DNA of 64,000 nucleotides from an uncultured Eubacteriales bacterium (GCA_964584935.1 CAZPBN010000003.1:39880-103879); one strand, 5' to 3'; shown: positions 11,046 to 51,479, counted from the stretch's first letter. The notes: generated by a model from the sequence alone, not told the origin. Numbers and translations: made by a program.

Positions 11046-11491
11046 ATGCTGCCTGCAGGAGAAATTATGTCATTGATGCTTCTGTTATCCTGAAGTGGTT
11101 TTCTCAAGCTGATGAAAACAATCTTGACAAAGCTCTTCAACTTCGGAAAGAATTCAGGGAACGAAACATAAATTTATATGCGCCGGAACTTTTAATATAC
11201 GAAATTGCCAATGTCTTAAGATACAAAAAAGTCCTGAGTGAAGACATCATTCATAAGGCCATTTCAAGTATCTATGACATGGATATTTTACTGCCTGTTA
11301 ATCTTGCTGTCATGACCCGTGCTGTAACCATTGCTCCGCAGTATCATATCACTGTTTATGATTCATCTTATCTAAGTTTTGCCCAGAATGTGGGATGCCA
11401 TTTGATCACGGCTGATAAAAAGCTTTACCAGAAGATCAAGGGATTTCCAGGATTAGTCTTCATAAGCGATTATGCCCCAGAAAGAAAATAA
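11042..11491 (+). CDS. vapC: PIN-domain toxin (VapC family)
   Basis: YVIDASVILKW (first acidic residue), YEIANVL, VYDSSYLSFA and ITADKKL are typical PIN-domain blocks. The gene is translationally coupled to the RHH gene. Confidence 0.8.
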   Translation: MNAACRRNYVIDASVILKWFSQADENNLDKALQLRKEFRERNINLYAPELLIYEIANVLRYKKVLSEDIIHKAISSIYDMDILLPVNLAVMTRAVTIAPQYHITVYDSSYLSFAQNVGCHLITADKKLYQKIKGFPGLVFISDYAPERK

Positions 11492-11573
11492 AAGATACTT
11501 TTAGTAAAGATGACAATATCATAAGAATAAAGAATAGACTTCGACATTAACGTTAATAAAACAAGTCCGGCTT

Positions 11574-32886: not shown

Positions 32887-34104
32887 ATGAATATTCTTTT
32901 CATCTCGGATGTGTCGATTAAAGAAGTAATTGGCGGGGCTGAAAGAGTCCTTTACGAACAAACTACAAGACTCGCTGAAAGAGCAAACCATGTTTGCATC
33001 ATCACTCGAAAACTTCCTTTTCATATGAAAGATCAAGAACAGATAAAAAATGTTAAAGAATTCAGATATCAGGTCAATCGAAAAAACAACTTTTCATTCC
33101 TTTTGTCTTCTCTTATCAATTCAATAAAATTATTCTCTAGATTAAATAAGGAATATAACTTTGACATAATCAATTTTCATCAACCTTTTTCTGCATTGGG
33201 AATAAACCTGACCAAAAAAAGCAGACTCAGTAAAAAAATATACACCTGTTTATCTTTATCTTTTAAAGAATTTGAGGTTCGCAATCCAGCCCCTAATAAA
33301 ATAATCCCCAGAATAACTCATAAGATAAATTCCTATCTCCGAAGAATCATGGAAAAATTCAGTATTTCAAAAAGTGATCTGATAATAGTTTTGAGCGAGT
33401 TCACAAAACATTCACTCATTGAAAAATATGGAATAAAACCAGAAAAAATTCATAAAATTCCTGGAGGAGTGGACCTGGATACATTCAAATATGTTGATGA
33501 TAAAAAAAATGTCCGCCAACGTTTAGGTGTTCCCTCCGAAATATTTTTGACTTTTACAGTCAGAAACTTGGTTCCAAGAATGGGCCTTGAAAATTTGATA
33601 TGTGCTATGAAAAAAATAAAAAGTTCTTACCAAGATATTCATCTTATAATAGGAGGGGAAGGCCCCCTAAAACAAAAGCTGATTAATTTAATCAAATCAT
33701 TAAATCTGGAAAAAAATATAGAACTCACAGGATTCATTCCCCATAAAAAGTTACCTCTTTTCTATCAGGCATCTGATTTTTTTATATTGCCCACAAAATG
33801 CATGGAGGGATTTGGACTGGTGACAATAGAAGCCATGGCTTGCGGAACACCTGTTCTGGGAACTCCTGTTGGTGGAACAAAAGAAATTTTAAATGGATTT
33901 GATTCCAGTTTCTTGTTTGAAGATATAAGTCCTCAATCAATAATAGAATTGATCCTACAAAAATATAAGTATTATAAAAAAAATCCCGATATGTATAAAA
34001 AGCTGTCCCAACGCAGCAGAAAATATGTTGAAAACAATTATTCCTGGGAAAAAAATGCTTTCAAAACAGAAGTTCTATTCAATAAATTAATAAATCAGAA
34101 ATAA
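32887..34104 (+). CDS. Glycosyltransferase family 4 (GT-B, Glycos_transf_1)
   Basis: GGAERV N-terminus and EGFGLVTIEAMACGTPVLGT C-terminal motif. Confidence 0.85.
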   Translation: MNILFISDVSIKEVIGGAERVLYEQTTRLAERANHVCIITRKLPFHMKDQEQIKNVKEFRYQVNRKNNFSFLLSSLINSIKLFSRLNKEYNFDIINFHQPFSALGINLTKKSRLSKKIYTCLSLSFKEFEVRNPAPNKIIPRITHKINSYLRRIMEKFSISKSDLIIVLSEFTKHSLIEKYGIKPEKIHKIPGGVDLDTFKYVDDKKNVRQRLGVPSEIFLTFTVRNLVPRMGLENLICAMKKIKSSYQDIHLIIGGEGPLKQKLINLIKSLNLEKNIELTGFIPHKKLPLFYQASDFFILPTKCMEGFGLVTIEAMACGTPVLGTPVGGTKEILNGFDSSFLFEDISPQSIIELILQKYKYYKKNPDMYKKLSQRSRKYVENNYSWEKNAFKTEVLFNKLINQK

Positions 34105-34107
34105 ACC

Positions 34108-36048
34108 ATGTGTGGATTTTGTGGAATCATCGATACTGAAGGAAAAGAAATCAAAAGAAAATCAATCGATAGAATGAATTCACTCCTTTCCCACAGAGGT
34201 CCCGATGATGAAGGAATCTATATTGAAAATAAGCCTCATAGAAGTTCAACCCCTGTAATCTCTATAGGACTGGGTCATAAGAGACTAAGTATAATTGACC
34301 TTTCAAAAGCTGGAAGACAGCCTATGTCAAACGAAGATAAATCCCTCTGGATGGTGTTTAACGGCGAAGTTTATAACTATATCAAACTGAAAAAAGAAAT
34401 GGAAAATTATGGGCATCATTTTAAATCCCAAACAGATTGTGAGGTGGTTATTCATCTATACGAACAGGAAGGAATAGAATCCGTAAATCAGTTGAATGGA
34501 ATGTTTGCATTCGCTTTATGGGACAGCAAAGCACAAATCCTATATTTATGCAGGGACAGATTGGGAATTAAACCTTTATATTATTACCGGAATGCAAATT
34601 CACTGATATTTGCTTCTGAAATTAAAAGTATTTTATGCGATCCTCAGGTTCCAAAGGAGATAGACTGGAATGCATTGAATCTTTATTTAACTTTTAACTA
34701 TATTCCTGCTCCTTATACCATTTTCGAAAATATAAAAAAATTAGAACCTGGTTGTTTCATTAAATTTGGGAAAAGCATATTTCAAAAAAAGCAATATTGG
34801 GATGTTAGAAACGACAAAAGACCTTATGAAAACAATGCAGAAAACCTAGATGTTTATAAAAAAAACTTATATGGGCTTTTAAAAGATTCTGTAAAAAAAC
34901 GGCTTATCACAGATGTCCCACTAGGAGCATTCCTAAGCGGAGGAATAGATTCAAGTATAATCGTTGGCTTGATGTCCCAAATCTCCAGTCAGCCTGTTAA
35001 AACATATTCCATAGGATATAAAGATATGCCTTTGTTCGATGAAACCAATTATGCCCAGGAAGTTGCTAAATTAAATAATACAGAACATCATGAAATAATG
35101 CTAACCAGCAAGGATGTTTTAAATGTCATCCCTGAAATTCTAAATTATTTTGACGAACCGTTTGCAGATTCTTCAGCTATTCCAACTTGTATTGTTTCCC
35201 GGGAATCAAGCAAATATGTAAAGGTAGCACTGTCAGGAGACGGAGGAGACGAATTGTTTGCCGGTTACAGGATGTATTCCGGAGAATACTGGTATTCGTT
35301 TTACAGGTTGATTCCTTCACTAATAAGAAACAAACTTATTAAACCTTTATTTCAATGGCTCCCTGCTTCCAGAGATATATATTTTCTGGAACATATAAGG
35401 AGAATGAAGAAATTTATTTCAGGAACACAAGATACTTTAGAAAACCGTTTTTTTTCATGGAACGAAATATTCAGTGAAAGCCTCCGGAGAAAACTCATTA
35501 AAGAAAAACCAAACGATTCCACAATAAATTTCAGCCTGGGAAAAGATATGATAGAAAAAAAAATGGACTGTTTTTACAGCGATAAGATAAACAGGATGCT
35601 ATATACGGATTTAAGACTATCTCTACCAAGTGATATGCTTGCCAAGGTTGACATGATGAGCATGAAAAATTCTTTAGAAGTCAGAGTTCCTTTTCTTGAT
35701 CACAGGGTCGTGGAGTATGTGTTTCAAATGCCTGGCAGCCTGAAACTCAGAGCCAAAAAAGGAAAATACATTCTTCTTGAAACGTTTAAACCCCTATTGC
35801 CTCCCAGCCTATTGAAAAAACCAAAATGGGGATTTGAAATTCCTATAAGCAGATGGCTAAAATCGGATCTAAATTTTCTAATAGATGAATATCTTTCAAA
35901 AAATTTAATAAAAAAACAAAAATTATTTGATTTCAGAGTAATCGATGGATTGGTTAAAAATCTCAGTTCAAACCGCTTTGATACTTCCTGGCATCTGTGG
36001 AATTTAATTATTTTCCAAGCCTGGTATTCAAAATATTTTCAACCTTAA
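34108..36048 (+). CDS. asnB: Asparagine synthase (glutamine-hydrolysing)-family amidotransferase
   Basis: N-terminal nucleophile MCGFCGI, PP-loop LSGGIDSS, and embedding between two GT4 genes. Confidence 0.9.
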   Translation: MCGFCGIIDTEGKEIKRKSIDRMNSLLSHRGPDDEGIYIENKPHRSSTPVISIGLGHKRLSIIDLSKAGRQPMSNEDKSLWMVFNGEVYNYIKLKKEMENYGHHFKSQTDCEVVIHLYEQEGIESVNQLNGMFAFALWDSKAQILYLCRDRLGIKPLYYYRNANSLIFASEIKSILCDPQVPKEIDWNALNLYLTFNYIPAPYTIFENIKKLEPGCFIKFGKSIFQKKQYWDVRNDKRPYENNAENLDVYKKNLYGLLKDSVKKRLITDVPLGAFLSGGIDSSIIVGLMSQISSQPVKTYSIGYKDMPLFDETNYAQEVAKLNNTEHHEIMLTSKDVLNVIPEILNYFDEPFADSSAIPTCIVSRESSKYVKVALSGDGGDELFAGYRMYSGEYWYSFYRLIPSLIRNKLIKPLFQWLPASRDIYFLEHIRRMKKFISGTQDTLENRFFSWNEIFSESLRRKLIKEKPNDSTINFSLGKDMIEKKMDCFYSDKINRMLYTDLRLSLPSDMLAKVDMMSMKNSLEVRVPFLDHRVVEYVFQMPGSLKLRAKKGKYILLETFKPLLPPSLLKKPKWGFEIPISRWLKSDLNFLIDEYLSKNLIKKQKLFDFRVIDGLVKNLSSNRFDTSWHLWNLIIFQAWYSKYFQP

Positions 36049-36052
36049 TCAA

Positions 36053-37255
36053 TTGAATAAAATTAGAGTCCTTCATATCATAACCAGATTTGATAAAGGC
36101 GGTTCAGCTTACAATACATTCCTCACCTTGCGGGATCTAACAAAATCAGATTTCAAGCTCTCCCTGGTAGCCGGATTGTCTTTTGAATCTGAAATGAATC
36201 AAGAAGAACTCAAGTCAAGGAATGAAAACATCAGAAAGCTCAGGGCATACGGTGTTGAATACATTGTATGTCCTTTCTTAACAAGAAAAATAAATATTAT
36301 CAAAGATTTCAAAGCATTTGTTTCACTCAGAAAGACAATAAAAAAAAATAAACCTTCAATCGTTCATACCCATTCTTCCAAAGCAGGATTCCTGGGAAGA
36401 ATAGCAGCAAAAATTGAGAAAGTTCCTCATATAATCCATACTCCCCACGGACATGTATTCTCTGGATATTTTGGCTGCTTCAAAACAAAGCTATTCATGG
36501 TTCTAGAAAGATTAGCAGCAAAAATAACCGATACACTCATCGCCCTGGCAAAACAAGAAAAAAACGACTATATCCACTATAGAATAGCAAAGGAAAATAA
36601 GTTGAGAGTTATTCCCAGTGGAATTGAAATGGAAAATTTTAAAGAACCAACTCTTCGAGAAAAAGTAAAAGCCCGGAAAAAACTTGGTATCCCGGAAAAA
36701 GCGGTGGTTGTTGGAACAGCAGGAAGGCTTGTTCCTGTAAAGGGGCCTGAATACCTGGTCAAAGCAGCAAAACATGTCCTGTCTTCGTATCCTGATACAG
36801 TATTCATTTTTGCAGGAGACGGCTACTTATGGAAAAATTTAGAAAAAAAAGCTATTGAATTGAAAATATTAAAAAATATTTATTTTTTAGGGTGGAGGGA
36901 AGATATTTGCAGAATTATGTCCATATATGATATTTTTGTTCTTCCTTCCCTTAATGAAGGAATGGGAAGAGTTTTAATCGAAGCGATGGCGCTGGGAAAG
37001 CCAATTGTGGCAAGCAACGTGGGAAGCATCCCTGACCTGATCGATCATGGAAAAAACGGGTATTTGGTTTCTGCAAAAAATCCATTCCAACTGGCTGATT
37101 CAATAAAAAAACTTATCAAAAATAATAAAATGAGAAATAAAATGGGCAGAGAAGGAAAGAAAAAAGCTGAGTCTTTCACAGCCGAAACAATGGTCAAAAA
37201 AATAAAAGCTCTCTACAAAGAACTATTGGAGTCTCAAGGTGAACACACTTCTTGA
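36053..37255 (+). CDS. Glycosyltransferase family 4
   Basis: FDKGGSAYN N-terminus and EGMGRVLIEAMALGKPIVASNVG motif. TTG start. Confidence 0.85.
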   Translation: MNKIRVLHIITRFDKGGSAYNTFLTLRDLTKSDFKLSLVAGLSFESEMNQEELKSRNENIRKLRAYGVEYIVCPFLTRKINIIKDFKAFVSLRKTIKKNKPSIVHTHSSKAGFLGRIAAKIEKVPHIIHTPHGHVFSGYFGCFKTKLFMVLERLAAKITDTLIALAKQEKNDYIHYRIAKENKLRVIPSGIEMENFKEPTLREKVKARKKLGIPEKAVVVGTAGRLVPVKGPEYLVKAAKHVLSSYPDTVFIFAGDGYLWKNLEKKAIELKILKNIYFLGWREDICRIMSIYDIFVLPSLNEGMGRVLIEAMALGKPIVASNVGSIPDLIDHGKNGYLVSAKNPFQLADSIKKLIKNNKMRNKMGREGKKKAESFTAETMVKKIKALYKELLESQGEHTS

Positions 37256-38677: not shown

Positions 38678-39736
38678 TTAAGAACATTTGAAAATCTCTT
38701 TAACCGCAGTGACAATTCTTTCTATTTCATGTTGGGTTAAGGATGGATACAGAGGAATGGATATTGTTTTTTCCCAGGCAGCATCGGTATTTGGGAAACC
38801 TGGTATATTCAAATACACATGAAGCGGCTTATAAACAGGGGGTAAAAATCTGATTTTTCTCACTCTTAGCTTTTTTAAATATTCAGTGGCTTTCCTCTTT
38901 GTTTCAATAACAAAACGATAATAGATATGGCTCTTGTTATCTCTCCGCAAGGGCAACGAAAAATCACAGTCTTTGAATTCCTTGAAATAATGCCTGGCTA
39001 TCTCTATTCTTCTATCAATAAACTTATCCAACTTTGATAATTGATCCATTCCCAGAGATGCCTGGATATCTGTCATTTTATAATTATAACGCAGTATGTA
39101 TTTTTTTTTATTATCATAATCTCTGATGTCTTTAATCTTGGATATAAGAGCTTTTGAGTTGCTTAATACCATCCCTCCTTCGCCGCAGGTTAACACTTTT
39201 GTCGCATAAAAAGAAAATGCAGACATTAAACCAAAGCTTCCTGCTTTCCTTCCTTTATAAACAGCACCTGCCGCCTGGGCACAATCTTCAATCACAGGAA
39301 TATTTATTTTCATTAGTCGATCCACTTCGGCAATGCATCCAAACATATGAGGAACAATAATAGCCTTTGTTTTTTTTGTAATAGCTCTTTTTACTTCATC
39401 GATAGAAATGTTATAAGTTAAGGGATCGATATCAACAATAACCGGAGTGGCTCCTGTGTAGTTCACTGCATTGAGAACTGCTGTGCAAACATAGGAAGGA
39501 ATAATAACTTCATCCTTCTCTCCTATTTCCAAAACTCTTAAAGCCATATGCAGAGCAGATGTTCCGGAACTTGAAGCTGCCGCATATTTCACACCAATAT
39601 ACTTTTGAAACATATCTTCAAATTTAGCTACTTTTGGCCCCTGTGCAAGTTGTCCTGACTCTATAGTCGAATCCACCCTCTCAAGGGCTGATCTATCTAT
39701 AAATGGACTGGAATGCGGGATAAATTTTTTCCCCAT
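38678..39736 (-). CDS. DegT/DnrJ/EryC1/StrS-family sugar aminotransferase
   Basis: SGTSALHMAL, and SFYATKVLTCGEGG carrying the PLP lysine. Confidence 0.9.
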   Translation of the reverse strand: MGKKFIPHSSPFIDRSALERVDSTIESGQLAQGPKVAKFEDMFQKYIGVKYAAASSSGTSALHMALRVLEIGEKDEVIIPSYVCTAVLNAVNYTGATPVIVDIDPLTYNISIDEVKRAITKKTKAIIVPHMFGCIAEVDRLMKINIPVIEDCAQAAGAVYKGRKAGSFGLMSAFSFYATKVLTCGEGGMVLSNSKALISKIKDIRDYDNKKKYILRYNYKMTDIQASLGMDQLSKLDKFIDRRIEIARHYFKEFKDCDFSLPLRRDNKSHIYYRFVIETKRKATEYLKKLRVRKIRFLPPVYKPLHVYLNIPGFPNTDAAWEKTISIPLYPSLTQHEIERIVTAVKEIFKCS

Positions 39737-40362
39737 TATAGATCACGTAAGAATCTGAATGATTTAAATGCTTCCGCATATTTGACTTTCCCTTGAAATC
39801 CCCTAAAATTTGCTGTCGCTTTGACACTTTCAACCATATCCAGGTTAGTGGGATAGGATTTGCTTACTTGGGAAGCAAAAATCTTGATCAATTTCTGCTT
39901 TTCTTCCAAAACATCTTCAATATCCACAAATATATCAGGATCAAAATTGATTGATGTGTAATCTTCATAAAAGAAAACCTTCTTTATATATCTGGTTGCA
40001 GCAAAAGTGCAAGAAGCCAAGGTTCTGTGATCCTGATGGATGTCCTCAATATAATTCACATAGACTTCATCAGGTTTTGTCTTCTCAATGACCTTATCAA
40101 TACTGGAAATAATTTGTCTGTTATTCGGCAGCTCAGTATCAGTATATCCCCCCCAAAAAATTTGTTTTACTCCAAGCATTCTTGATGCTTCTTCTTGCTC
40201 TCTTTCCCTGATATTTTCATCACCTCCGTATTCCCCCTTAGTCAGAATCATATAGAATATATTCACTCCTTTTCTGACCATTTTGAGAAAAGTCCCTCCA
40301 CAACCGTATTCTATATCATCAGGATGAGCTCCAAGTGCTAAAACATTCATCTTAGTTCTCAT
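39736..40362 (-). CDS. PIG-L/LmbE-family deacetylase
   Basis: LALGAHPDDIEYGCGGT and HQDH zinc-binding motifs. Confidence 0.85.
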   Translation of the reverse strand: MRTKMNVLALGAHPDDIEYGCGGTFLKMVRKGVNIFYMILTKGEYGGDENIREREQEEASRMLGVKQIFWGGYTDTELPNNRQIISSIDKVIEKTKPDEVYVNYIEDIHQDHRTLASCTFAATRYIKKVFFYEDYTSINFDPDIFVDIEDVLEEKQKLIKIFASQVSKSYPTNLDMVESVKATANFRGFQGKVKYAEAFKSFRFLRDL

Positions 40363-41035
40363 TTACTAAAATAGACAAACTGTCCGGACCACAATTGAAA
40401 AGCAGATCTAACACAGACATAAACGGCTCAAAATCTCCATAAATCTGGGGGTAAATCGGGTGCTTATATTCCTGATAAATTATCTCTATACCTTCTTTCT
40501 CAAATAATTCTGTGTTCATATAATTCGCTCCATCTTTACCTGACAGATAAGCATCTGCATTCAATTGCTTACAGATGTCAATCAATCTCTCTGTACTTTC
40601 TTCTCTTAGCCTGAGTTCAGAAGACCTAAGGAATTTTTTTGTACGAATTTCCAGGGCTTCTGTTAAATAAGCTATCATATGGATATTGAGATCCACAAGA
40701 TTCTCCCACTCCCGATTGAAGGTTTTTTCAAAAAAAGGAATATACTTTTTAAAATATTTTGTTTTTGAATAATGATTATATAAAGCATTCAAATGTTTTT
40801 TTTTCCATGCAACTGTGTTATTTATCTTCACTTCATTTATTTTTTGAGGAAATCTATGAATAACAGGGATAGTCAGCCATTGCCACCTTTTGTCAGTTTT
40901 TATTTTATTTCTATTTTGCCATTCATTTTTTTTGAACTGAACATTATCCAAAAAAACAAAAATGTCACTTCTTCTTATTTTGTCAAAATAGCCAAGCCAT
41001 GGTAAATACTGAGGTTGATGAACGGAAACTAGCAT
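40352..41035 (-). CDS. WbqC-family protein
   Basis: MLVSVHQPQYLPWLGYFDKI is the WbqC N-terminal signature. Confidence 0.8.
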   Translation of the reverse strand: MLVSVHQPQYLPWLGYFDKIRRSDIFVFLDNVQFKKNEWQNRNKIKTDKRWQWLTIPVIHRFPQKINEVKINNTVAWKKKHLNALYNHYSKTKYFKKYIPFFEKTFNREWENLVDLNIHMIAYLTEALEIRTKKFLRSSELRLREESTERLIDICKQLNADAYLSGKDGANYMNTELFEKEGIEIIYQEYKHPIYPQIYGDFEPFMSVLDLLFNCGPDSLSILVNEN

Positions 41036-43334: not shown

Positions 43335-44798
43335 ATGAGGAACAATATGAAAAGGATTTTATTACTCCTTATTTCAACGGTTTTAATAAATTTCTTTAAT
43401 ATTTACGGGATGAAAACTGATACTATTCAGATGCTGGGACTGATGGATATTCGGACAGACTACAGCGATGGAGCTCACACCTTGGACTATATTGTGAAAT
43501 TAGCTAAAAAGAGAGGATTCCATGTTCTTTTTATAACCGATCATGACAGAGTCGCTTTAGAGTATGGATTGCTCCCATTTGAAAACATTCTAAAGATTAA
43601 GGTAGAGAGGGATTCTATTAATAAAAAAGGAGCACTAAAGTATTTATCCATGATAGAACGAGTCTCGAAAGAAAATCCGGACATGATTTTAATTCCTGGA
43701 ACAGAATCCAGCCCTTTCTATTACTGGAAGGGGAGTATAATTAAAAGAAATTTAACCGTTTTAAACTGGGAAAGGCATCTTCTAGTGGTAGGTCTGGAGG
43801 ATCCATCAGATTATAAAAATCTGCCTACCATTCACAATGAATCCACTTATAATGTAAAAAGATTTTCTTATCTCACCCTGCTTCTATTAATACTCGTTTC
43901 AATATTTTGTATATATATAATTTTAAGAAAGAAAAAAGCTATCAAAATTGCTGGTATAATAATCTTAATTTTTTGTTTGCTTCTTATGATCAATAAATAT
44001 TTCTACAAGAATTATTCTTTTGATCAGTATCATGGAGATAAAGGGATTTCACCTTATCAGGTTTTTATAGACTATGTCATCAATCACGGCGGCATGGTTT
44101 TTTGGAATCATCCTGAGACAAAATCAGGCTATTCAAAAATGGGCCCGGTGTATAGAAATACACCTCCTTATCCACAAGTATTAATCAAATCAAGGAATTA
44201 TACCGGTTTTTCGTCTTTATATGGTGACAGCACCACAATCATTGATCCTGGAAATCTATGGGATAAAGTTTTGCTTGAGTACTGTTCCGGAAAAAGGGAA
44301 AATCCTGTGTGGGGAATTTCTACTTCTGATTTCCATAAAGAAGGCGGTGCGGGAGAAAAGTTAGGAAATTTTCTTACGGTTTTTCTAGTAACCGAAAAAA
44401 GCAAAAGAGGTATTCTGGACGCCATGGAAAAGGGAAAAATGTATGCTTTCAGAGGAAATATTGATTATCCCCCTTTGGTTTTGAAAGAATTCTCAGTTTC
44501 AAATTCACACGATTCTCAAAATGTGACTATGGGAGATGAAATAATATGCGATACAAAACCCCACATTCACATTGTTATTCAAACGGCTTTCCCTAAGACA
44601 GAGAATGCTGTGATTGTTCAGCTTATTAGGTCTGGGACAATGATAAAAAAGTTCTCCGGTAAAACCCCTCTACATATAGATTATCACGATAATTATTATA
44701 AAGCCGGGAAAAAAACATATTACAGAATCACCGCAAAGGACAGTAAAAATCAAAAAATAGTTTCAAATCCTGTCTTTGTGACTTTTAAGAAAAAATGA
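43335..44798 (+). CDS. Membrane protein with a degenerate PHP-like N-terminal domain
   Basis: N-terminal signal/TM, DIRTDYSDGAHTLDYIVKLAKKRGFHVLFITDHD (PHP-like but without the HxH), and two central TM helices (LTLLLLILVSIFCIYIIL, IAGIIILIFCLLLMI). Confidence 0.55.
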   Translation: MRNNMKRILLLLISTVLINFFNIYGMKTDTIQMLGLMDIRTDYSDGAHTLDYIVKLAKKRGFHVLFITDHDRVALEYGLLPFENILKIKVERDSINKKGALKYLSMIERVSKENPDMILIPGTESSPFYYWKGSIIKRNLTVLNWERHLLVVGLEDPSDYKNLPTIHNESTYNVKRFSYLTLLLLILVSIFCIYIILRKKKAIKIAGIIILIFCLLLMINKYFYKNYSFDQYHGDKGISPYQVFIDYVINHGGMVFWNHPETKSGYSKMGPVYRNTPPYPQVLIKSRNYTGFSSLYGDSTTIIDPGNLWDKVLLEYCSGKRENPVWGISTSDFHKEGGAGEKLGNFLTVFLVTEKSKRGILDAMEKGKMYAFRGNIDYPPLVLKEFSVSNSHDSQNVTMGDEIICDTKPHIHIVIQTAFPKTENAVIVQLIRSGTMIKKFSGKTPLHIDYHDNYYKAGKKTYYRITAKDSKNQKIVSNPVFVTFKKK

Positions 44799-44840: not shown

Positions 44841-45032
44841 TTATTTTTTTACCCTATTAAACTCTCTGACTCCCAACGCTATGGCAAAAAGAAGTAACAA
44901 CTGGGAAAATTGAACGTAAGCCTGGGCAGTTATCCCAAAAAAGAATGGCTTTAAAAGAATTCTGGTGATAATACCGAAAATAATGCAAATGACTGCGGCA
45001 ATAATAAACAAATCACACAATCTATTTATCAT
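44841..45032 (-). CDS. Small two-TM membrane protein (63 aa) encoded by the last gene of the RiPP-type operon
   Basis: AAGGAGGG lies 4-5 nt before the ATG at 45032. MINRLCDLFIIAAVICIIFGIITRILL...LLLLFAIALGV. Confidence 0.5.
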   Translation of the reverse strand: MINRLCDLFIIAAVICIIFGIITRILLKPFFFGITAQAYVQFSQLLLLFAIALGVREFNRVKK

Positions 45033-45094: not shown

Positions 45095-46540
45095 TTATGA
45101 ACGAGTTCCTTGTATCTTTTTTATTAATGAATCTTGTATTTGTTCCTGGGAATTAATATATTTTCTCATAGCACCCCAAAATTGAGCTGTCATTCGGGCT
45201 TCTTTGAAGTACTTTTGAAGTTCTGGTTTTGGAAAACCTTTGAGGCTAATAACAGGTTCATCCAGCCTACTGAACTTAGCCCAGTCCCTTGTGAGAATTT
45301 TAAGATTATATTTTTCAGGATTTTTGTAAATCGCAGTACCGGGATAGGGATTAAATATTGATACCTCCTGAGTCATATTGAGGTCATTTTCCCAAAGATA
45401 AACCATTGCCTTAAGACTTTCAGTAGCTGTTTCAGGAGTTTCTCCTGGATGTCCAAACATCCATAAAGTACCTGCTTCCAATCCATGTTTTTTGATCAAT
45501 TTACATTTCTCTACAACCTTGTTAAAAGTAATCTTTTTATTCATTATTTTGAGTACTTTTTCTGATGCGCTTTCAACGGCAATGAGTATTCTTGTTATAC
45601 CGGCATCCTTCATTATTTCAATATGCTCTTCCGGCAAGTGATTAGCATGAGCTAAAACCGCAACTGTGTGGTCTTTGAAATCAATTTTTTTTAGCTTTTG
45701 ACACATGTGATTGAAAAAATATTCCGGAACATTAAACATGCTCGCCAGAAAACCGATAAAAGCATCGTTCTGGTTATATTTCGAAACTAAAAAATTAATT
45801 TCTTTAGATATTTTATCCACAGCGCGTACCCGCATTTTATGTCCCCAAAATTCACTTTCCACACAATACACACATCTGAAAGGACAGCCTCTTGTAAACG
45901 TAAAGAAAAAATTACATCTTTCCAAGTATTTCTCCTTAACTAAGGAGTAATCACAAGCCGGAAGCTCTTCTAATTTTCCAGGTTTTCTGTTTACGTTTCT
46001 TATAATAGAATCGTTTTTTCTATAGGTGATCCCCTCTATATTTTTCAAATCCTTTTTACTGAGAATGCAATCGACTATGTCAAGCATTGTCCATTCCCCT
46101 TCTCCGCGAACCACTATATCCACATTTTTACTCTCTTGGAGGCATTCTTTATCCAGAAATGTCACATGAGGACCTCCGATAACAGTCGTGATTTCCGGAT
46201 TTATGTCTTTGCACAATTCGAGAATCTTAAGGGAGACAGGATACTGGCATGTATGAGGCCCGATCCCCACAATTTTGGGATCGGCTCTCCTTATAACTTT
46301 CTCTAATTTATGAAAAGGAAACGGATCTTCTCCTCTGTCAGGAATATCTGTTAAGAACAATTCATCTGTAAAAAAAACTTTAATCCGATATCCTTTTGAT
46401 TTCAAAAAGGTTGCTATAGAAAGAATTCCTTCTCCTGCTGTATGCCGGTCGCTGTGAGGCAAAATACCCTGACGCCAGAAAGGGGCTTGCATCAATAAAC
46501 AATCGACTTTATTCATAGCTGAAAAACTCCACCGTTCCAT
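45095..46540 (-). CDS. B12-binding-domain radical SAM protein
   Basis: An N-terminal cobalamin-binding-like domain followed by the RGCPFRCVYCVE CxxxCxxC cluster motif. Confidence 0.85.
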   Translation of the reverse strand: MERWSFSAMNKVDCLLMQAPFWRQGILPHSDRHTAGEGILSIATFLKSKGYRIKVFFTDELFLTDIPDRGEDPFPFHKLEKVIRRADPKIVGIGPHTCQYPVSLKILELCKDINPEITTVIGGPHVTFLDKECLQESKNVDIVVRGEGEWTMLDIVDCILSKKDLKNIEGITYRKNDSIIRNVNRKPGKLEELPACDYSLVKEKYLERCNFFFTFTRGCPFRCVYCVESEFWGHKMRVRAVDKISKEINFLVSKYNQNDAFIGFLASMFNVPEYFFNHMCQKLKKIDFKDHTVAVLAHANHLPEEHIEIMKDAGITRILIAVESASEKVLKIMNKKITFNKVVEKCKLIKKHGLEAGTLWMFGHPGETPETATESLKAMVYLWENDLNMTQEVSIFNPYPGTAIYKNPEKYNLKILTRDWAKFSRLDEPVISLKGFPKPELQKYFKEARMTAQFWGAMRKYINSQEQIQDSLIKKIQGTRS

Positions 46541-46558: not shown

Positions 46559-47593
46559 TCATTCAATTTCATCCTGATCGGTTCTTCCCTTTTTATCCAC
46601 ATCTATCTTTTTTCTTAATTCTGCCATTCGACACGATTCACTGTCAGGCACAAACATTTTTTTTCTTTCCAATAAAGCTAAACCTTCGCATCTGAAACAC
46701 CAGAATTTCTTATTACACTTAGAAAAAGAATAACACGGCTTTTCAGAATCTTCTCTTATTTTCTTCAATGCAGAGGAATTTTCCCACAATGAATTTATAC
46801 TTATTTCTGATATGTTTCCAAGTTTATAAGGAACATTCAAGCAGGGATACACATCTCCTCTAGCATTAACGGCAAACATCACTTTCCCGAGATCACAGCT
46901 AAACGAACCGGTTGGATTTATTTTCGAAGCTTTTTCATAATGTTTGAAGTATTCCGTCATTTGCTCGTTTGTAAGCCTGTGTTTCACTGGTTCTTTATTT
47001 CCATTATCTCCCGGGTAAATCACAGGAGAAAAAATATGTAATAATTTCATCTCAGAAACCATTTCTCTTATTCTTCCTAACTCACTGAAATTCTCTGCGA
47101 GCACAGGAGTTTTTATGGCAATTCCAATTTCTTCCTTTTTCAAAAGCCTTATAGCATCCATAACTGATTCAAATGAACCGGAAATCCCGGTCAATCTATC
47201 GTGAGTCTCTGATGTAGCTCCTAACAGCGTTATATCAACCCAGTAAACACCAATTCTTTTTAATCTTGCCGCTTCAGTGGCTCCAATCAACGTTCCGTTT
47301 GTAAAAAGAAGAGTGGCGAAGTTGGATTGGACTGAATAATCCAATATGTCCCAAATATCTTCTCTCATCATAGGTTCTCCTCCTGTAATTGTCAAAAATA
47401 AAGAACCTAGTTCGGAAGCTTCATCCAAAATTCTTTTGATTTTATCTAAACTTAGGGTTTCGGTTTTTCTTTTATCATTATAACAATGAACACACTTCTG
47501 GTTGCAGGAAGTGGTCACCTCAATAGCTACAGAAAAAGGTATATTTTTACTAACTATTTTTCTGTAAAGACCGCCGAGTTTCATGGCTGCCAA
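46559..47593 (-). CDS. Radical SAM / SPASM-domain peptide-modifying enzyme
   Basis: TSCNQKCVHCY cluster motif, GGEPMM, and a C-terminal Cys-rich SPASM-like region (GDVYPC...LGNI...CYSFSKCNKKFWCFRC). Confidence 0.85.
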   Translation of the reverse strand: MAAMKLGGLYRKIVSKNIPFSVAIEVTTSCNQKCVHCYNDKRKTETLSLDKIKRILDEASELGSLFLTITGGEPMMREDIWDILDYSVQSNFATLLFTNGTLIGATEAARLKRIGVYWVDITLLGATSETHDRLTGISGSFESVMDAIRLLKKEEIGIAIKTPVLAENFSELGRIREMVSEMKLLHIFSPVIYPGDNGNKEPVKHRLTNEQMTEYFKHYEKASKINPTGSFSCDLGKVMFAVNARGDVYPCLNVPYKLGNISEISINSLWENSSALKKIREDSEKPCYSFSKCNKKFWCFRCEGLALLERKKMFVPDSESCRMAELRKKIDVDKKGRTDQDEIE

Positions 47594-48396
47594 TCCTTGA
47601 ATATTTCATCAAAAACATTGTCATTTTTTCTAAACTCTAAGTTATAGATAGGAACTCTACAACATATCTGTTCAACAGAAGAAAGTATATGTTCAATCAT
47701 CTCTGTATTTTCAGTGGGGTATTTCGGAAAAGATACACAGACACTGGAAAAAAGTGTCTTAACTGCATCTATCTTTTCAGTTTTTTTAATTTTCAATGCG
47801 TTTGATTTATTAATAAAATAAATTCCTTTCATTGGAAAATTTCCGTAACTTGAAATATCTCCCCATGGAGTGGAACACGAATACCATTTCTCATTCAAGT
47901 ATTTCAAGCCTATACAATCATCTGATAATATAAGTTTGCCAGTTTTTTTCGCAAGAGTACTTTTCCCTCCTTCATTGGGACCAATGAAGACATAACCTTC
48001 CCCTTCATTCATTACAGCCGATGCATGGATCAAAACACCATGATATTCAGGCAGGACATATTGCATCACTAACCTAAGAAAATTACTGTAGAGGTATTTT
48101 GCAAGTTCTCTGTTTATATAAGAAGCATCTGGTCCAAATGCAAATTTCTTCCTAAGGTCCACATTTCCCATCATAACCTGCATCTTCATATTTTTTTCTT
48201 TTCCATAACCATTTTCTTCCAGAACAAAATCAAATATTTTTTTATCTTTATAGAAATGAATTGAAAAATCGGCATCCCCGTTGCTTTTATAATCCTTCAG
48301 CCATTCATTCAGAATGACAAATCCTTCCTCCGTATCTGTTTCCAAATATAAATTCAGCCCTGCTATATTAACCACCAGGTTTTTCTTTGACATCAA
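47581..48396 (-). CDS. HPr-kinase-related (HprK-like) P-loop protein
   Basis: HASAVMNEGEGYVFIGPNEGGKSTLA matches the HPr kinase C-terminal domain P-loop context. The gene overlaps both neighbours. Confidence 0.7.
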   Translation of the reverse strand: MMSKKNLVVNIAGLNLYLETDTEEGFVILNEWLKDYKSNGDADFSIHFYKDKKIFDFVLEENGYGKEKNMKMQVMMGNVDLRKKFAFGPDASYINRELAKYLYSNFLRLVMQYVLPEYHGVLIHASAVMNEGEGYVFIGPNEGGKSTLAKKTGKLILSDDCIGLKYLNEKWYSCSTPWGDISSYGNFPMKGIYFINKSNALKIKKTEKIDAVKTLFSSVCVSFPKYPTENTEMIEHILSSVEQICCRVPIYNLEFRKNDNVFDEIFKDWQP

Positions 48397-48646
48397 GAAG
48401 CTCCTTTTTCTGAAGTTCTGTTAAAAAATCTCGGACATCTTTTTCAACTGTATCTCTATTCGATTCAAACAGAGTAAGAACATGATTTATTATTTCATCA
48501 AGCCTTTTTTCATTTTCAAGGAATTTCCAAATTTCAGTCCCAACTTCATTAAATACAATCACTTCATTTTCTTTTACTGAAACCACAACAGCTTTTTTTT
48601 CTATTTCTCTCCACGGTACATGGAAATACCGACTATAATGATTCAT
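48368..48646 (-). CDS. PqqD-family RiPP recognition element (lasso B1-like)
   Basis: At 92 aa, VVVSVKENEVIVFNEVGTEIWKFLENEKRLDEIINHV...DVRDFLTELQKKELL is a typical PqqD/RRE pattern. Confidence 0.8.
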   Translation of the reverse strand: MNHYSRYFHVPWREIEKKAVVVSVKENEVIVFNEVGTEIWKFLENEKRLDEIINHVLTLFESNRDTVEKDVRDFLTELQKKELLDVKEKPGG

Positions 48647-49068: not shown

Positions 49069-49097
49069 ATTTTATTCTACCTTCTCCCTTATGTCAA
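49069..49097 (-). promoter_or_regulatory. Consensus-like promoter TTGACA-17-TAAAAT 15 nt upstream of the B2 start codon
   Basis: Reverse complements of 49092-49097 (TTGACA) and 49069-49074 (TAAAAT), with a 17-nt spacer. There is no SD between the -10 and the ATG at 49053. Confidence 0.45.
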
Positions 49098-49113
49098 GAA
49101 TAGTTGAATTTGA

Positions 49114-49296
49114 AGTTCCCCCATTTTTTTCTTTATAGGATAATAATAATGAAATGGATCAGGTTAATGGGTTCAAAAACACGCAGGATTTTCACCAGCG
49201 ATGAAAATCCAGCTCGATTTCAGGCCTCGCTCTCCTCTTCGAGGAACCATGCCCGCTCGGCCTTCAAACGGTTTTCTCACCCATATAACCTGATCC
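49114..49296 (-). repeat. Copy 2 of the structured repeat (block B 49114-49192, GC-rich core, block A 49246-49283, 5' closing-stem arm to 49296)
   Basis: Homology to 4137-4337 as described for copy 1. A 17-bp closing helix pairs 49156-49172 with 49279-49296. Internal hairpin ggattttca/tgaaaatcc. The copy is bracketed by a 20-bp inverted repeat (49111-49130 and 49351-49371). Confidence 0.6.
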
Positions 49297-49531
49297 TCTC
49301 ATCTTTTACTCCTGAACTTTCCTTCAATTCTTATTTCCCAGTTTATGAAGAAAAAAATGGGGGAAGCTTCATTTGGGGGGAAGGGGGCTTGAAAAGGTGC
49401 CCCCAAAAATTGGTTTCCCACTTTAAGATTTGATTAACTTAATGATTATAAATACATTACGTTAAGACTTGATCAATTTTTGGGGGAACTCCTGTAGTTG
49501 AAGTCCCCTAAATTATGATACAATAAGATAA

Positions 49532-50419
49532 ATGAAGCAGGAATATTCTTTTTTTGAATGGTTCAGTGATAAAAATCGTTTAATTTGTACCGGATCAAAC
49601 TTATTGAAACTGGATAAAATTGCTTCTTTGGTCAAAAGTCTGAACAAATCAAATGTGAAGGTTATGCTTTTGAAAGGGGCTGATTTACTGGAAAACACAT
49701 ATGAAGATATCAGCCAAAGGTCTATGGAGGATATGGATATACTCGTAAAACAAGGAGATCTCGATAAGGCAAGAAAAGTTCTTAGAGAAAACAACTATAG
49801 ATTGCTCTATTCAAATAAATCAAATTCTGAAGTCTACACGCTGGAAACAGAAAAAAATATATTCATTGACCTTCATTGGAGACTTGTTAACAAGAAAAGT
49901 CCTTCCCAACGATATATTTACTCACCCGATGAAACGATTATCTGGCAAAGAGCCGCTCAATTTAAAATTAAACATGTTCCTGTTTATGGAATGTGTCCTG
50001 AGGATCTTCTTGTTTACTTGTGTTTCCATTCTTTAAAAGAACGATTTCTGCAGAAAAAATGGCTCATTGACATAAAACTATTACTGAATAAGCAAGAAAA
50101 CCATATCGATTGGAATCAATTCATAGATATTGCCAGAAATTTTGGTACAGACAAACTGTGTGGTTTAATCCTTGATTATTTGAAAAAATTCTATTCTGTC
50201 AAAGTTCCATCCTGTTTGTTGATAAAATTGAAAAACAAATACCCTTTTTACTTTTTATCAGAACTTATTTTTAGATCCTATTTAAAATTGACAATAATTC
50301 CTAAAGATTTTCTCTGGCTTCTGGCAATGAACAGTAAAAAAAATCAGTTTCTTTTCTTAAAAGGATTACCTCTTTATCTCTGGAAAAAGTGGAGAGGGCA
50401 CATTTTACAAAAATATTGA
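49532..50419 (+). CDS. Uncharacterised nucleotidyltransferase family protein (PF14907-like)
   Basis: VMLLKGADLLENTYEDISQRSMEDMDILV and DLHWRL are typical of this family, which co-occurs with PqqD/HprK-like/B2 genes. Confidence 0.7.
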   Translation: MKQEYSFFEWFSDKNRLICTGSNLLKLDKIASLVKSLNKSNVKVMLLKGADLLENTYEDISQRSMEDMDILVKQGDLDKARKVLRENNYRLLYSNKSNSEVYTLETEKNIFIDLHWRLVNKKSPSQRYIYSPDETIIWQRAAQFKIKHVPVYGMCPEDLLVYLCFHSLKERFLQKKWLIDIKLLLNKQENHIDWNQFIDIARNFGTDKLCGLILDYLKKFYSVKVPSCLLIKLKNKYPFYFLSELIFRSYLKLTIIPKDFLWLLAMNSKKNQFLFLKGLPLYLWKKWRGHILQKY

Positions 50420-50461: not shown

Positions 50462-50605
50462 TCAAGTCGGACAGCTATTCAATGCCTGTAAAGTTGAAGA
50501 ACATTCAGCCATTGCATTCCTGCAGGCAAGAAATGCTCTGTTAATCTTTTCGCTCTGCTCAATAGCCGGTTTTTCGTATTTTCTCTTTTTTCCCTGATTT
50601 TTCAT
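50462..50605 (-). CDS. Candidate RiPP precursor peptide (47 aa): MKNQGKKRKYEKPAIEQSEKINRAFLACRNAMAECSSTLQALNSCPT
   Basis: Translated by hand and absent from the ORF track (below 60 aa). GAAGGTG lies 4 nt upstream of the ATG, and TTGACA-17-TAGATT lies upstream. The leader is charged with a YEKPAI motif. The C-terminal third contains 3 Cys and ends in Thr. Confidence 0.55.
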   Translation of the reverse strand: MKNQGKKRKYEKPAIEQSEKINRAFLACRNAMAECSSTLQALNSCPT

Positions 50606-50623
50606 AAAACACCTTCTTTTGTT

Positions 50624-50652
50624 AATCTATATAATTTTCTCCAAAATGTCAA
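50624..50652 (-). promoter_or_regulatory. Putative promoter of the precursor ORF (TTGACA-17-TAGATT)
   Basis: Reverse complements of 50647-50652 and 50624-50629, with a 17-nt spacer. Confidence 0.4.
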
Positions 50653-50718
50653 TATCGATATTATAGTAAAATTTTCTTTTTTCTTATTTTTATCAAAATA
50701 GCAGCTTAAGGGATCCGG

Positions 50719-51396
50719 TTATATTTTATCTGTACTGCACATTAAAATCCCTTCCGGATCCACAAATCTCAAATAAAAACCCCAGCCTCCTGACCCCTGA
50801 AGGACTTTAATTAACACTTTATTCCATCCCTTCTTTAGATTCACCTTGATTTTATCTTGATCAGGGGAAGCTCCTCTATAAATAGCATGAGAATGGACAA
50901 GTTCATCATTTAACCATACACGAACCGCATCATCACTCCCTAGCAACATTTGGGTTTCAAAGGCTTCTGATGAATACACATACACCAATCCATAAGCTAC
51001 AGATTGTTCTTTGACTGGCAGCATATTCGCAAGATCCACATATCCGTTTTCTTCTGATTTCATTCTCTCCCATTTGACTCTCAAGTCATTTTTTCCCTGG
51101 TAGTTCTTAACAAGGGCAATCTCTTTCTCAGGGGGATAGACTTTTCTAAGGAAATCCATATTTGGAGCATCAAAAGATCCTATGATATTCCATTCAGTGA
51201 TAAATCTTCGTGAGGCTGATGTCGAACTCAATCCTATAAAAGCCAAGTTTGACCCGCTAGACTCAGGAACTTTTCCTTCAATCTTCAATAATATGTTATT
51301 TTCACCTTCTTGGAGACTCACTTTCTCCAAGATGAATTTTCCTATTTTTTTATCAGGCGAATATCCATTGAAAATCTTAGTTGGAGATAGGGACAC
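50719..51396 (-). CDS. Hypothetical protein with a jelly-roll / galactose-binding-like C-terminal domain; possibly N-terminally truncated
   Basis: GSDDAVRVWLNDELV and KGWNKVLIKVLQGSGGWGFYLRF resemble accessory beta-sandwich domains of glycoside hydrolases. There is no signal peptide. Confidence 0.5.
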   Translation of the reverse strand: MSLSPTKIFNGYSPDKKIGKFILEKVSLQEGENNILLKIEGKVPESSGSNLAFIGLSSTSASRRFITEWNIIGSFDAPNMDFLRKVYPPEKEIALVKNYQGKNDLRVKWERMKSEENGYVDLANMLPVKEQSVAYGLVYVYSSEAFETQMLLGSDDAVRVWLNDELVHSHAIYRGASPDQDKIKVNLKKGWNKVLIKVLQGSGGWGFYLRFVDPEGILMCSTDKI

Positions 51397-51479
51397 ATAT
51401 TCTATATCATTTATTTCGGAAACTTTAATATTTCAGTATATCGTACATTTATTATATTATGAGATCAGGAATATTGAAT

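Follow-up and report, generated by a model that had tools for sequence, protein, structure and literature searches.

The family of linear polyphosphorylated peptides (LPPs) of Bacillota (Popov et al., Nat Commun 2026, PMC13381572) combines a recognition element for peptides that are made on the ribosome and modified after translation (RiPPs), an HprK-like kinase, an NTP transferase and an SpI-like peptidase, and it has no cyclase. Its precursors share with those of lasso peptides a YxxP motif in the leader, as defined in PMC10368454 and PMC13381572. Lasso-type RiPP recognition elements (RREs) lying beside radical S-adenosylmethionine (SAM) enzymes were noted with RRE-Finder and treated as false positives, and the literature that we searched contained no description of ScmC, SynChlorMet, or HprK plus radical SAM RiPPs. 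The subject of this analysis is a minus-strand open reading frame (ORF) of 47 codons in a 64-kb stretch of DNA (CAZPBN010000003.1:39880-103879; hereafter the window, with positions counted from its first letter), which lies next to genes for a PqqD-family RRE, a B2-type protease, an HprK-like protein of the ScmC family and two radical SAM enzymes. Judging from comparison with related loci, this ORF is most probably the gene (A) for the precursor in a RiPP pathway descended from lasso-type machinery, and the product is not itself a lasso peptide.

A first-pass annotation of the window had put the ORF forward as the precursor for the PqqD/B2/HprK-like/radical SAM operon, and this proposal has held up, in that the ORF is conserved and syntenic and carries a leader that fits the RRE. 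The ORF itself, its GAAGGTG ribosome-binding site and its TTGACA-17-TAGATT promoter were all located as that annotation had described them. At 47 codons the ORF would fall under the default 60-aa minimum of the ORF listing. The translation of 50462..50605 on the minus strand is MKNQGKKRKYEKPAIEQSEKINRAFLACRNAMAECSSTLQALNSCPT, and the features of the gene are the following:

50462..50605, minus strand: precursor peptide gene, 47 aa plus stop; conserved, syntenic and, from its substitution pattern, under purifying selection
50528..50605, minus strand: putative leader, residues 1-26, with the nearly invariant pattern KKYxKPxIE..EKIxRxFLA; inferred boundary, uncertain by ~2 residues
50561..50578, minus strand: YEKPAI, predicted RRE-binding motif, residues 10-15, with Y, P and I invariant
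50465..50527, minus strand: putative core, ACRNAMAECSSTLQALNSCPT, with conserved Cys28, Cys35, Cys45, Thr38-Leu-Gln and Pro46
50610..50616, minus strand: ribosome-binding site GAAGGTG, followed by a TTTT spacer (4 nt) and the ATG at 50605..50603
50624..50652, minus strand: promoter-like element TTGACA-17-TAGATT, with 10/12 consensus positions in a promoter scan

The 47-aa homologue is found at the same position in 5/5 related Aminicenantes loci that cover it (L001, L002, L004, L005, L006). In the first of these, from a metagenome-assembled genome (MAG) of the Aminicenantaceae, it is an annotated protein with 98 % identity and the same gene order, and in each of the other four it is a called gene at the equivalent position, in loci whose ScmC-like protein has 49-54 % identity to the 271-aa protein of the window. 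A profile search recovered 8 homologues from 5.8 billion proteins and 3 more divergent ones from 1.84 billion cluster representatives, and the precursor family has 12 members in all. When the ORF is compared with the diverged loci, the proportion of synonymous differences (pS) is 0.62-1.0, which is to say saturated, and that of nonsynonymous differences (pN) is 0.15-0.24; since synonymous sites are saturated while pN is ~0.2, the coding sequence is under purifying selection, with dN/dS at 0.06-0.21 for those of these comparisons in which dS is computable. Despite this saturation, the homologous ORFs of L002, L004 and L005 are preceded at the corresponding place by TTGACA-17-TATATT, and purine-rich equivalents of the ribosome-binding site are present as AGGTGG in L004 and GAAGGT in L005. 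Judged by these sequence comparisons, the 47-codon ORF is a real, conserved gene. No Rfam family accounts for the precursor region, a six-frame motif scan of the window found no second copy of the peptide, and a tblastn scan of metagenomes with the peptide alignment gave no matches.

Gene order in the homologous loci runs from the peptide through a convergent NTP_transf_5 gene to B2, PqqD, ScmC, radical SAM/SPASM and B12-radical SAM. What lies upstream of the peptide varies (the window and L001 have an aminotransferase region there, L002 has a response regulator and L005 an RND pump), and the peptide constantly adjoins the NTP_transf_5 - B2 - PqqD - ScmC - radical SAM series whatever those neighbours are. 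Because the upstream genes differ among loci, the precursor ORF marks one conserved edge of a cassette, whose other parts in the window are:

49532..50419, plus strand: NTP_transf_5 nucleotidyltransferase, convergent with the precursor gene (PF14907, E 3.6e-45)
49069..49097, minus strand: promoter-like element TTGACA-17-TAAAAT ahead of the B2 operon, with 11/12 consensus positions; sequence common to L001
48643..49053, minus strand: B2-type transglutaminase-like cysteine protease, putative leader peptidase (PF13471, 34.6 bits against a cut-off of 26)
48368..48646, minus strand: PqqD-family RRE, B1-like (PF05402, E 1.3e-15)
47581..48396, minus strand: ScmC-family HprK/PEPCK-like P-loop protein, putative peptide kinase (PF27840; 271 aa)
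46559..47593, minus strand: radical SAM/SPASM enzyme (PF04055 + PF13186)
45095..46540, minus strand: B12-binding radical SAM enzyme, putative C-methyltransferase (PF02310 + PF04055)
44841..45032, minus strand: small membrane protein of 63 aa, presumed to belong to the cassette; with orthologues behind the B12-radical SAM gene of L002, L003 and L004

Among solved structures, the closest to the PqqD protein of the window are the lasso RRE TbiB1 (E 5.9e-17), then PbaB1 and LppB. Its alignment with LppB (9x8z_B) is free of gaps, with N33, V35, D70, F74 and L83 identical, and across seven PqqDs serving four peptide families the sole invariant residues besides the initiator Met are N33, W40, D70 and F74. 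In LppB, D70 forms a hydrogen bond with the Tyr of the leader, the kink at the Pro is held in place by N33, and this Pro is sandwiched by V35 and F74 (Popov et al., PMC13381572). By the identity of these residues, the window PqqD is a lasso/LPP-type RRE with its YxxP-contacting residues intact; because it keeps the residues that hold Tyr and Pro in the solved complexes, it is predicted to bind the YxxPxI leader, a prediction well supported by homology.

On the side of the peptide, the residues up to A27 that are invariant in the nine closest family members are Y10, K12, P13, I15, E16, E19-K-I21, R23 and F25-L-A, and the three divergent members also retain Y, P, FLAC and the Cys pattern, with I or L at position 15. 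The family alignment thus bears out the suggestion, made in the first-pass annotation, that Y10, P13 and I15 fit the spacing of a lasso leader, and small ORFs in homologous loci share the KYxKPxI leader and an invariant Cys pattern, features for which a search had been proposed there. The motif was not met outside such peptides in the loci scanned: Y-x-[K/A]-P-x-[LIVM]-[E/I] had 18 matches in 587,851 six-frame residues (9,932 segments), all of them in candidate precursors. The leader register was borrowed from lasso and LPP systems, and in that register the leader agrees with the lasso YxxPxL pattern, placed 15-17 residues ahead of the proposed core. Since the distance from motif to cleavage site spans 15-17 residues in the characterised systems (PMC10368454, PMC13381572), the cleavage site here is uncertain by ~2 residues, and the exact cut between L26 and A27 that had been proposed is not supported.

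Within the core, the nine closest members have C28, R29, M32, A33, C35, T38-L-Q40 and C45-P46 in common, and all three core Cys (28, 35, 45), already flagged as possible thioether donors, are invariant across the family alignment. The alignment was less kind to two other early ideas about the core. One was an Ala1/Glu8 macrolactam, yet E stands at position 34 ("Glu8") in the window and its 98 % identical twin P0001 alone, with Q, S, A or G in the ten other members, the 12-member alignment shows no conserved acidic residue in the core, and the cassette has no cyclase gene. The other was phosphorylation of the C-terminal Thr, but the last residue of the family peptides is T, R or Q, or is missing. 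An anSME-type CxPxR motif, a sulfatase-maturase idea formed by eye, was also set aside, the C-terminus being C-P-[T/R/Q].

A metagenome scan with an alignment of ScmC yielded 40 loci, among which small ORFs with the same leader adjoin distant ScmC-PqqD pairs in differing gene orders:

L013 type (9 loci): peptide MATQDKRPYEKPTLEPSSIFGADTTTCCRATNGTCS..., in the order S24/S26-like, ScmC, PqqD, radical SAM/SPASM, peptide, NTP_transf_5
L045: peptide MKKKKKKYVKPLISSEKVFETAALGCGKCYSAS..., with radical SAM/SPASM ahead of the peptide and an S24 peptidase behind it
L025, L026, L032, L033: acidic peptides lacking Cys, next to an HprK-like gene, with PqqD and an S26-like peptidase in L026 and L033

Wherever a locus has a radical SAM/SPASM gene and its peptide was identified, the core carries at least 3 Cys. 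The six YxxP peptides of L025, L026, L032 and L033 have 0 Cys, and no radical SAM/SPASM homologue was found in these four loci, an absence that is weaker evidence in L025 and L032 because their contigs are short.

Several other properties of these loci can be recorded here. L013-L017, L020, L022 and L047 are soil metagenome contigs of high GC that encode a 53-aa peptide (MATQDKRPYEKPTLEPSSIFGADTTTCCRATNGTCS...TSTTS), and in the lasso register this peptide has Thr at -2 and a core that begins CC. L025, L026, L032 and L033 each have one or two Cys-free YxxP peptides (e.g., MKKYEKPVVEMIEVQIEEEIAAPIDAGLGDESGGEDW) that are LPP-like and lie outside the published set, and L026 adjoins Wzz, CbiA and sortase genes. 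A scan of GTDB gave one further cassette and one locus of the SynChlorMet (SCM) type (L008, Margulisiibacteriota), and nothing else. The latter, on MAG contig DATJPP010000092.1, has two radical SAM/SPASM genes, PqqD, a 350-aa ScmC-like protein and an S26-like peptidase, with no YxxP small ORF on the 6.6-kb contig, and it looks like a genuine SCM-type cassette. S24/S26-like genes occur in the L013, L045, L008 and L026 types, and no S24/S26 homologue is present in the window-type loci, to which B2 is confined among the loci compared.

The enzymes of the cassette are for the most part distant relatives of characterised ones, and none of the cassette proteins reaches a curated NCBIfam system cut-off. 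The PF27840 assignment of the ScmC-like protein comes from the precomputed Pfam match of its homologues; it has a Walker A sequence, GPNEGGKST, followed by LSDD, and its predicted fold, from a model of moderate confidence (mean predicted local distance difference test score, pLDDT, 67), matches PEPCK and HPr kinase. Its gene starts with TTG in the window, a form of the protein for which an exact look-up gave no record, and the database version begins one codon later. The best solved relative of the radical SAM/SPASM enzyme is SkfB (E 6e-12), with CteB also among the nearest, and the B12-radical SAM enzyme resembles the ApyD, PhpK and RiPP C-methyltransferase families at scores below their cut-offs, its solved relatives being CysS and TokK. 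The two radical SAM genes sit close against the ScmC gene, in overlapping or adjacent reading frames, and both are kept in every locus long enough to show them. B2 scores 30.6 bits with the lasso B2 model NF033537, below the cut-off of 33, and has no sequence match among solved structures; its Cys74 and His108 are invariant in four orthologues. The B2 of the L001 twin (11291..11569) is called as 92 aa, probably from a wrong start, because the form of 136-138 aa is conserved in the window, L002, L004 and L005. Where the NTP_transf_5 gene lies and which way it points do not change in L001, L002, L004, L005 and L006, and the gene is found in L013-type loci too. Beyond the B12-radical SAM gene lies a 487-aa PHP/CehA-like membrane protein, 43335..44798 (plus strand), conserved in L002 and L004, and this protein and the 63-aa one may serve export, immunity or processing.

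In the pathway that can be envisioned from these parts, the PqqD RRE would bind the leader and hand the peptide to the enzymes that modify it. The radical SAM/SPASM enzyme would act on the three invariant Cys, most likely by forming thioether (sacti- or ranthi-type) cross-links for which the conserved Met/Ile32 and Thr38 are candidate acceptors, and the B12-radical SAM enzyme would add one or more C-methyl groups. The HprK-like ScmC protein would phosphorylate a conserved hydroxyl, with Thr38 or Ser/Thr36-37 likelier than the variable C-terminus, and NTP_transf_5 would then decorate the phosphate, as in phosphoglycosylated lasso peptides (pseudomycoidin). Finally, the B2 cysteine protease, aided by the RRE, would cut off the leader near Phe25-Leu26-Ala27 and release a modified peptide of ~21 residues without a macrolactam ring.

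A number of observations weigh against this picture. Position -2 in the canonical register is an invariant Phe25 in place of the Thr(-2) of lasso leaders, and of the residues documented at this position (Thr, Ile, Val, Ala) Phe is not one (PMC10368454). The core lacks the Ser at position 3 that is the phosphosite of LPPs and Bsf, and its C-terminal residue is variable. The convergent NTP_transf_5 gene stands between the precursor gene and the operon, and because of this separation co-regulation of the two is inference only. As for the enzymes, only two of the three B2 catalytic residues can be assigned (Cys74 and His108), the ScmC-like protein is distantly HprK-like, with low TM-scores for a model of mean pLDDT 67, and both radical SAM enzymes fall under every curated NCBIfam cut-off. 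The correlation between core Cys and radical SAM genes is drawn from few independent lineages, with L025 and L032 on short contigs.

Of the other explanations that can be considered, the one that survives best is that the product is an LPP-like linear phosphorylated (and glycosylated) peptide in which the Cys residues would have a structural part (disulfides or metal ligands) while other residues, or another substrate, would be what the radical SAM enzymes modify. An RRE, an HprK-like protein and an NTP_transf_5 without a cyclase do make up the LPP core set, the RRE residues are the same as those of LppB, and polysaccharide genes are found close to the cluster, as they are to LPP clusters. However, the radical SAM genes are packed with ScmC and kept in all loci of sufficient length, core Cys tracks the radical SAM/SPASM gene and is lacking in the four loci that yielded no such gene, and the window system has neither the SpI-like peptidase nor the MsbA-like pump nor the Ser3 of LPPs, so that this explanation is unlikely. 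Less probable again, and by our estimate quite improbable, is that the ORF encodes a small conserved protein of another kind (for instance a regulator, an immunity factor or a peptide that binds metal) that just happens to lie beside the operon. The gene does have a promoter of its own, with a convergent gene between it and the operon, and the peptide matches no known precursor family in Pfam or NCBIfam, but its leader motif is common to peptide families beside distant ScmC-PqqD pairs with other gene orders, the RRE keeps the residues that would bind YxxP, and the cassette offers no alternative conserved ORF as a candidate substrate.

A true lasso precursor, with an Ala1-Glu8 macrolactam and with the radical SAM enzymes, kinase and nucleotidyltransferase as tailoring enzymes, is less probable still. 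Among the hallmarks of lasso clusters, the locus has a discrete B1-type RRE, a B2-type protease (with the sub-threshold NF033537 score given above) and a YxxPxL-type leader, and the window peptide does have Glu at the proposed core position 8; it lacks a cyclase gene, a conserved Asp/Glu at core position 7-9 and Thr(-2). No macrolactam cyclase was found in the cassette or in any homologous locus, and the Glu is replaced by Q, S, A or G outside the window and its twin, with no acidic core residue conserved. The sole Asn_synthase protein of the 64-kb window (34108..36048) might be thought to supply the cyclase from ~14 kb away. Yet it has an MCG start, a full glutamine amidotransferase domain and family 4 glycosyltransferases (GT4) on either side, and it scores 504.6 with the AsnB model TIGR01536 (cut-off 267) and 253 with the lasso cyclase model NF033535 (cut-off 525); on these scores and this setting it is a genuine AsnB of a polysaccharide locus. 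Because there is neither a ring-forming enzyme nor a conserved ring acceptor, the product would not be a lasso peptide, and we regard the lasso explanation as contradicted by these two absences. That the ORF arose by chance in an AT-rich intergenic region could be entertained for 47 codons in an AT-rich genome, but this is ruled out for practical purposes by the comparison of synonymous and nonsynonymous change, since length and sequence are kept across loci with saturated synonymous sites, dN/dS is low (0.06-0.23) wherever computable, the promoter is conserved as well, and in other assemblies the ORF was picked out by independent gene callers.

A 386-bp segment of the window, 49109..49494, is missing from L001, a locus otherwise 98.5 % identical; an 8-bp direct repeat (TAGTTGAA, at 49101-49108 and 49495-49502) stands on both sides of it, it has perfect 10-nt near-terminal inverted repeats (49114-49123 and 49481-49490), and it looks like an insertion of the miniature inverted-repeat transposable element type that separates the start of NTP_transf_5 from the promoter of B2. 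Inside it, at 49186..49210 (minus strand), lies a terminator-like hairpin, the only one in this region. Further small ORFs between NTP_transf_5 and B2 were dropped as conserved candidates, this stretch being largely the insertion that L001 lacks. Directly upstream of the precursor -35 box, 50668..51427 cannot be aligned to L001 (9470..9938), whose flanks on both sides are 98 % identical, and from the alignment it has arisen by replacement or as an indel, with one end at the promoter itself; within it lies a 225-aa ORF (50719..51396) with no family match. Close to the cassette, 32887..37255 and 39736..41035 form a polysaccharide-type locus with GT4 glycosyltransferases and an AsnB/XrtA-type amidotransferase. 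It includes a WbqC homologue (40352..41035), beside which a PIG-L homologue is expected, the two being assigned through Pfam matches in L002 and the shared gene order. LPP and paeninodin clusters have been linked to capsule loci (PMC13381572), a link that this polysaccharide locus echoes.

If the ORF is indeed the precursor, it supplies a candidate substrate for an orphan type of cassette, PqqD + ScmC/HprK-like + radical SAM/SPASM, for which we found no earlier precursor family. It also suggests a simple rule for mining, namely to look beside a ScmC-PqqD pair for a small ORF with Y-x-K-P-x-[ILV]-E, which recovered several families with zero background matches in the loci examined. The leader module of lasso systems, RRE plus B2, appears able to serve in pathways that make no lasso, here in the largely uncultured phylum Aminicenantes, and the 2026 LPP finding would be extended beyond Bacillota. 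We tentatively propose, at somewhat less than even chances, that the pathway belongs to an undescribed RiPP class, in which the lasso leader module was taken over by a radical SAM/SPASM cross-linker and a B12 methylase while the HprK-like kinase and the nucleotidyltransferase were retained. In that case the product would be a thioether-bridged, C-methylated, phospho-decorated non-lasso peptide, and together with the L013 and L045 types the family would point to a wider, unrecognised radical SAM branch of the LPP/phosphorylated-lasso lineage outside Bacillota. The value of the finding is moderate, because the family is small, the product is a prediction from its genes, and hybrid RiPP clusters are common.

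How the cassette relates to described systems can be judged gene by gene. SynChlorMet clusters (ScmC/D/E/F) and GeoRSP resemble it in grouping a PqqD-like protein, a ScmC-family protein and radical SAM/SPASM enzymes. However, the window proteins score far below the models for those systems (ScmC 18.5 against a cut-off of 125, ScmD 24.8 against 100, ScmE 102.9 against 400), the window has one SPASM and one B12-radical SAM enzyme where SCM has two SPASM enzymes, and it has B2 and NTP_transf_5 in addition. Sactipeptide and ranthipeptide systems (SkfA/SkfB, subtilosin, SCIFF/CteB) likewise join a radical SAM/SPASM enzyme to a Cys-containing core and an RRE, but their RRE is fused to the maturase, whereas that of the window is a separate lasso-type B1 protein accompanied by B2, a kinase-like protein and a nucleotidyltransferase. 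The window enzyme reaches no family cut-off in this group either, with 98 for StsB (cut-off 625) and 71.5 for AlbA (cut-off 850).

The phosphorylated and phosphoglycosylated lasso peptides (paeninodin, pseudomycoidin, Bsf) have, like the window, the genes A, B1, B2, K (HprK-like; distantly so in the window) and N (nucleotidyltransferase) and a YxxPxL leader, and leaders of this group are already known in which -2 is not Thr. The window differs from them in having no macrolactam cyclase, no conserved Asp/Glu acceptor and no conserved C-terminal Ser or Ser3, and in adding radical SAM/SPASM and B12-radical SAM enzymes.

With regard to the LPPs, the window departs from the published pattern at several points. 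Its peptidase is a lasso B2 cysteine protease and not one of SpI/S26 type, it adds two radical SAM enzymes, its core is rich in Cys and without Ser3 (the phosphorylated Ser3 of LPPs would correspond to Cys28 or Arg29), no MsbA-like exporter was found in the cassette, and its host is placed in Aminicenantes where LPP hosts are Bacillota. Its kinase-like protein belongs to the ScmC family PF27840, with a weak HprK match and a GxxxxGKS...SDD motif, and of the extended LPP leader YxxPxVLxHQxIxFETxxS only Y, P, the second residue past Pro and one Ile align with the window. Set beside these differences, LPPs are, like the window system, cyclase-less relatives of phosphorylated lasso peptides, and the two have in common a discrete lasso-type RRE with the contact residues N33, V35, D70 and F74, an HprK-like P-loop protein (weakly so in the window), an NTP_transf-type enzyme, an N-terminal YxxPx[V/I/L] leader and polysaccharide loci close by. 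Overall, the closest described system is the LPP family, with the phosphorylated lasso peptides also near.

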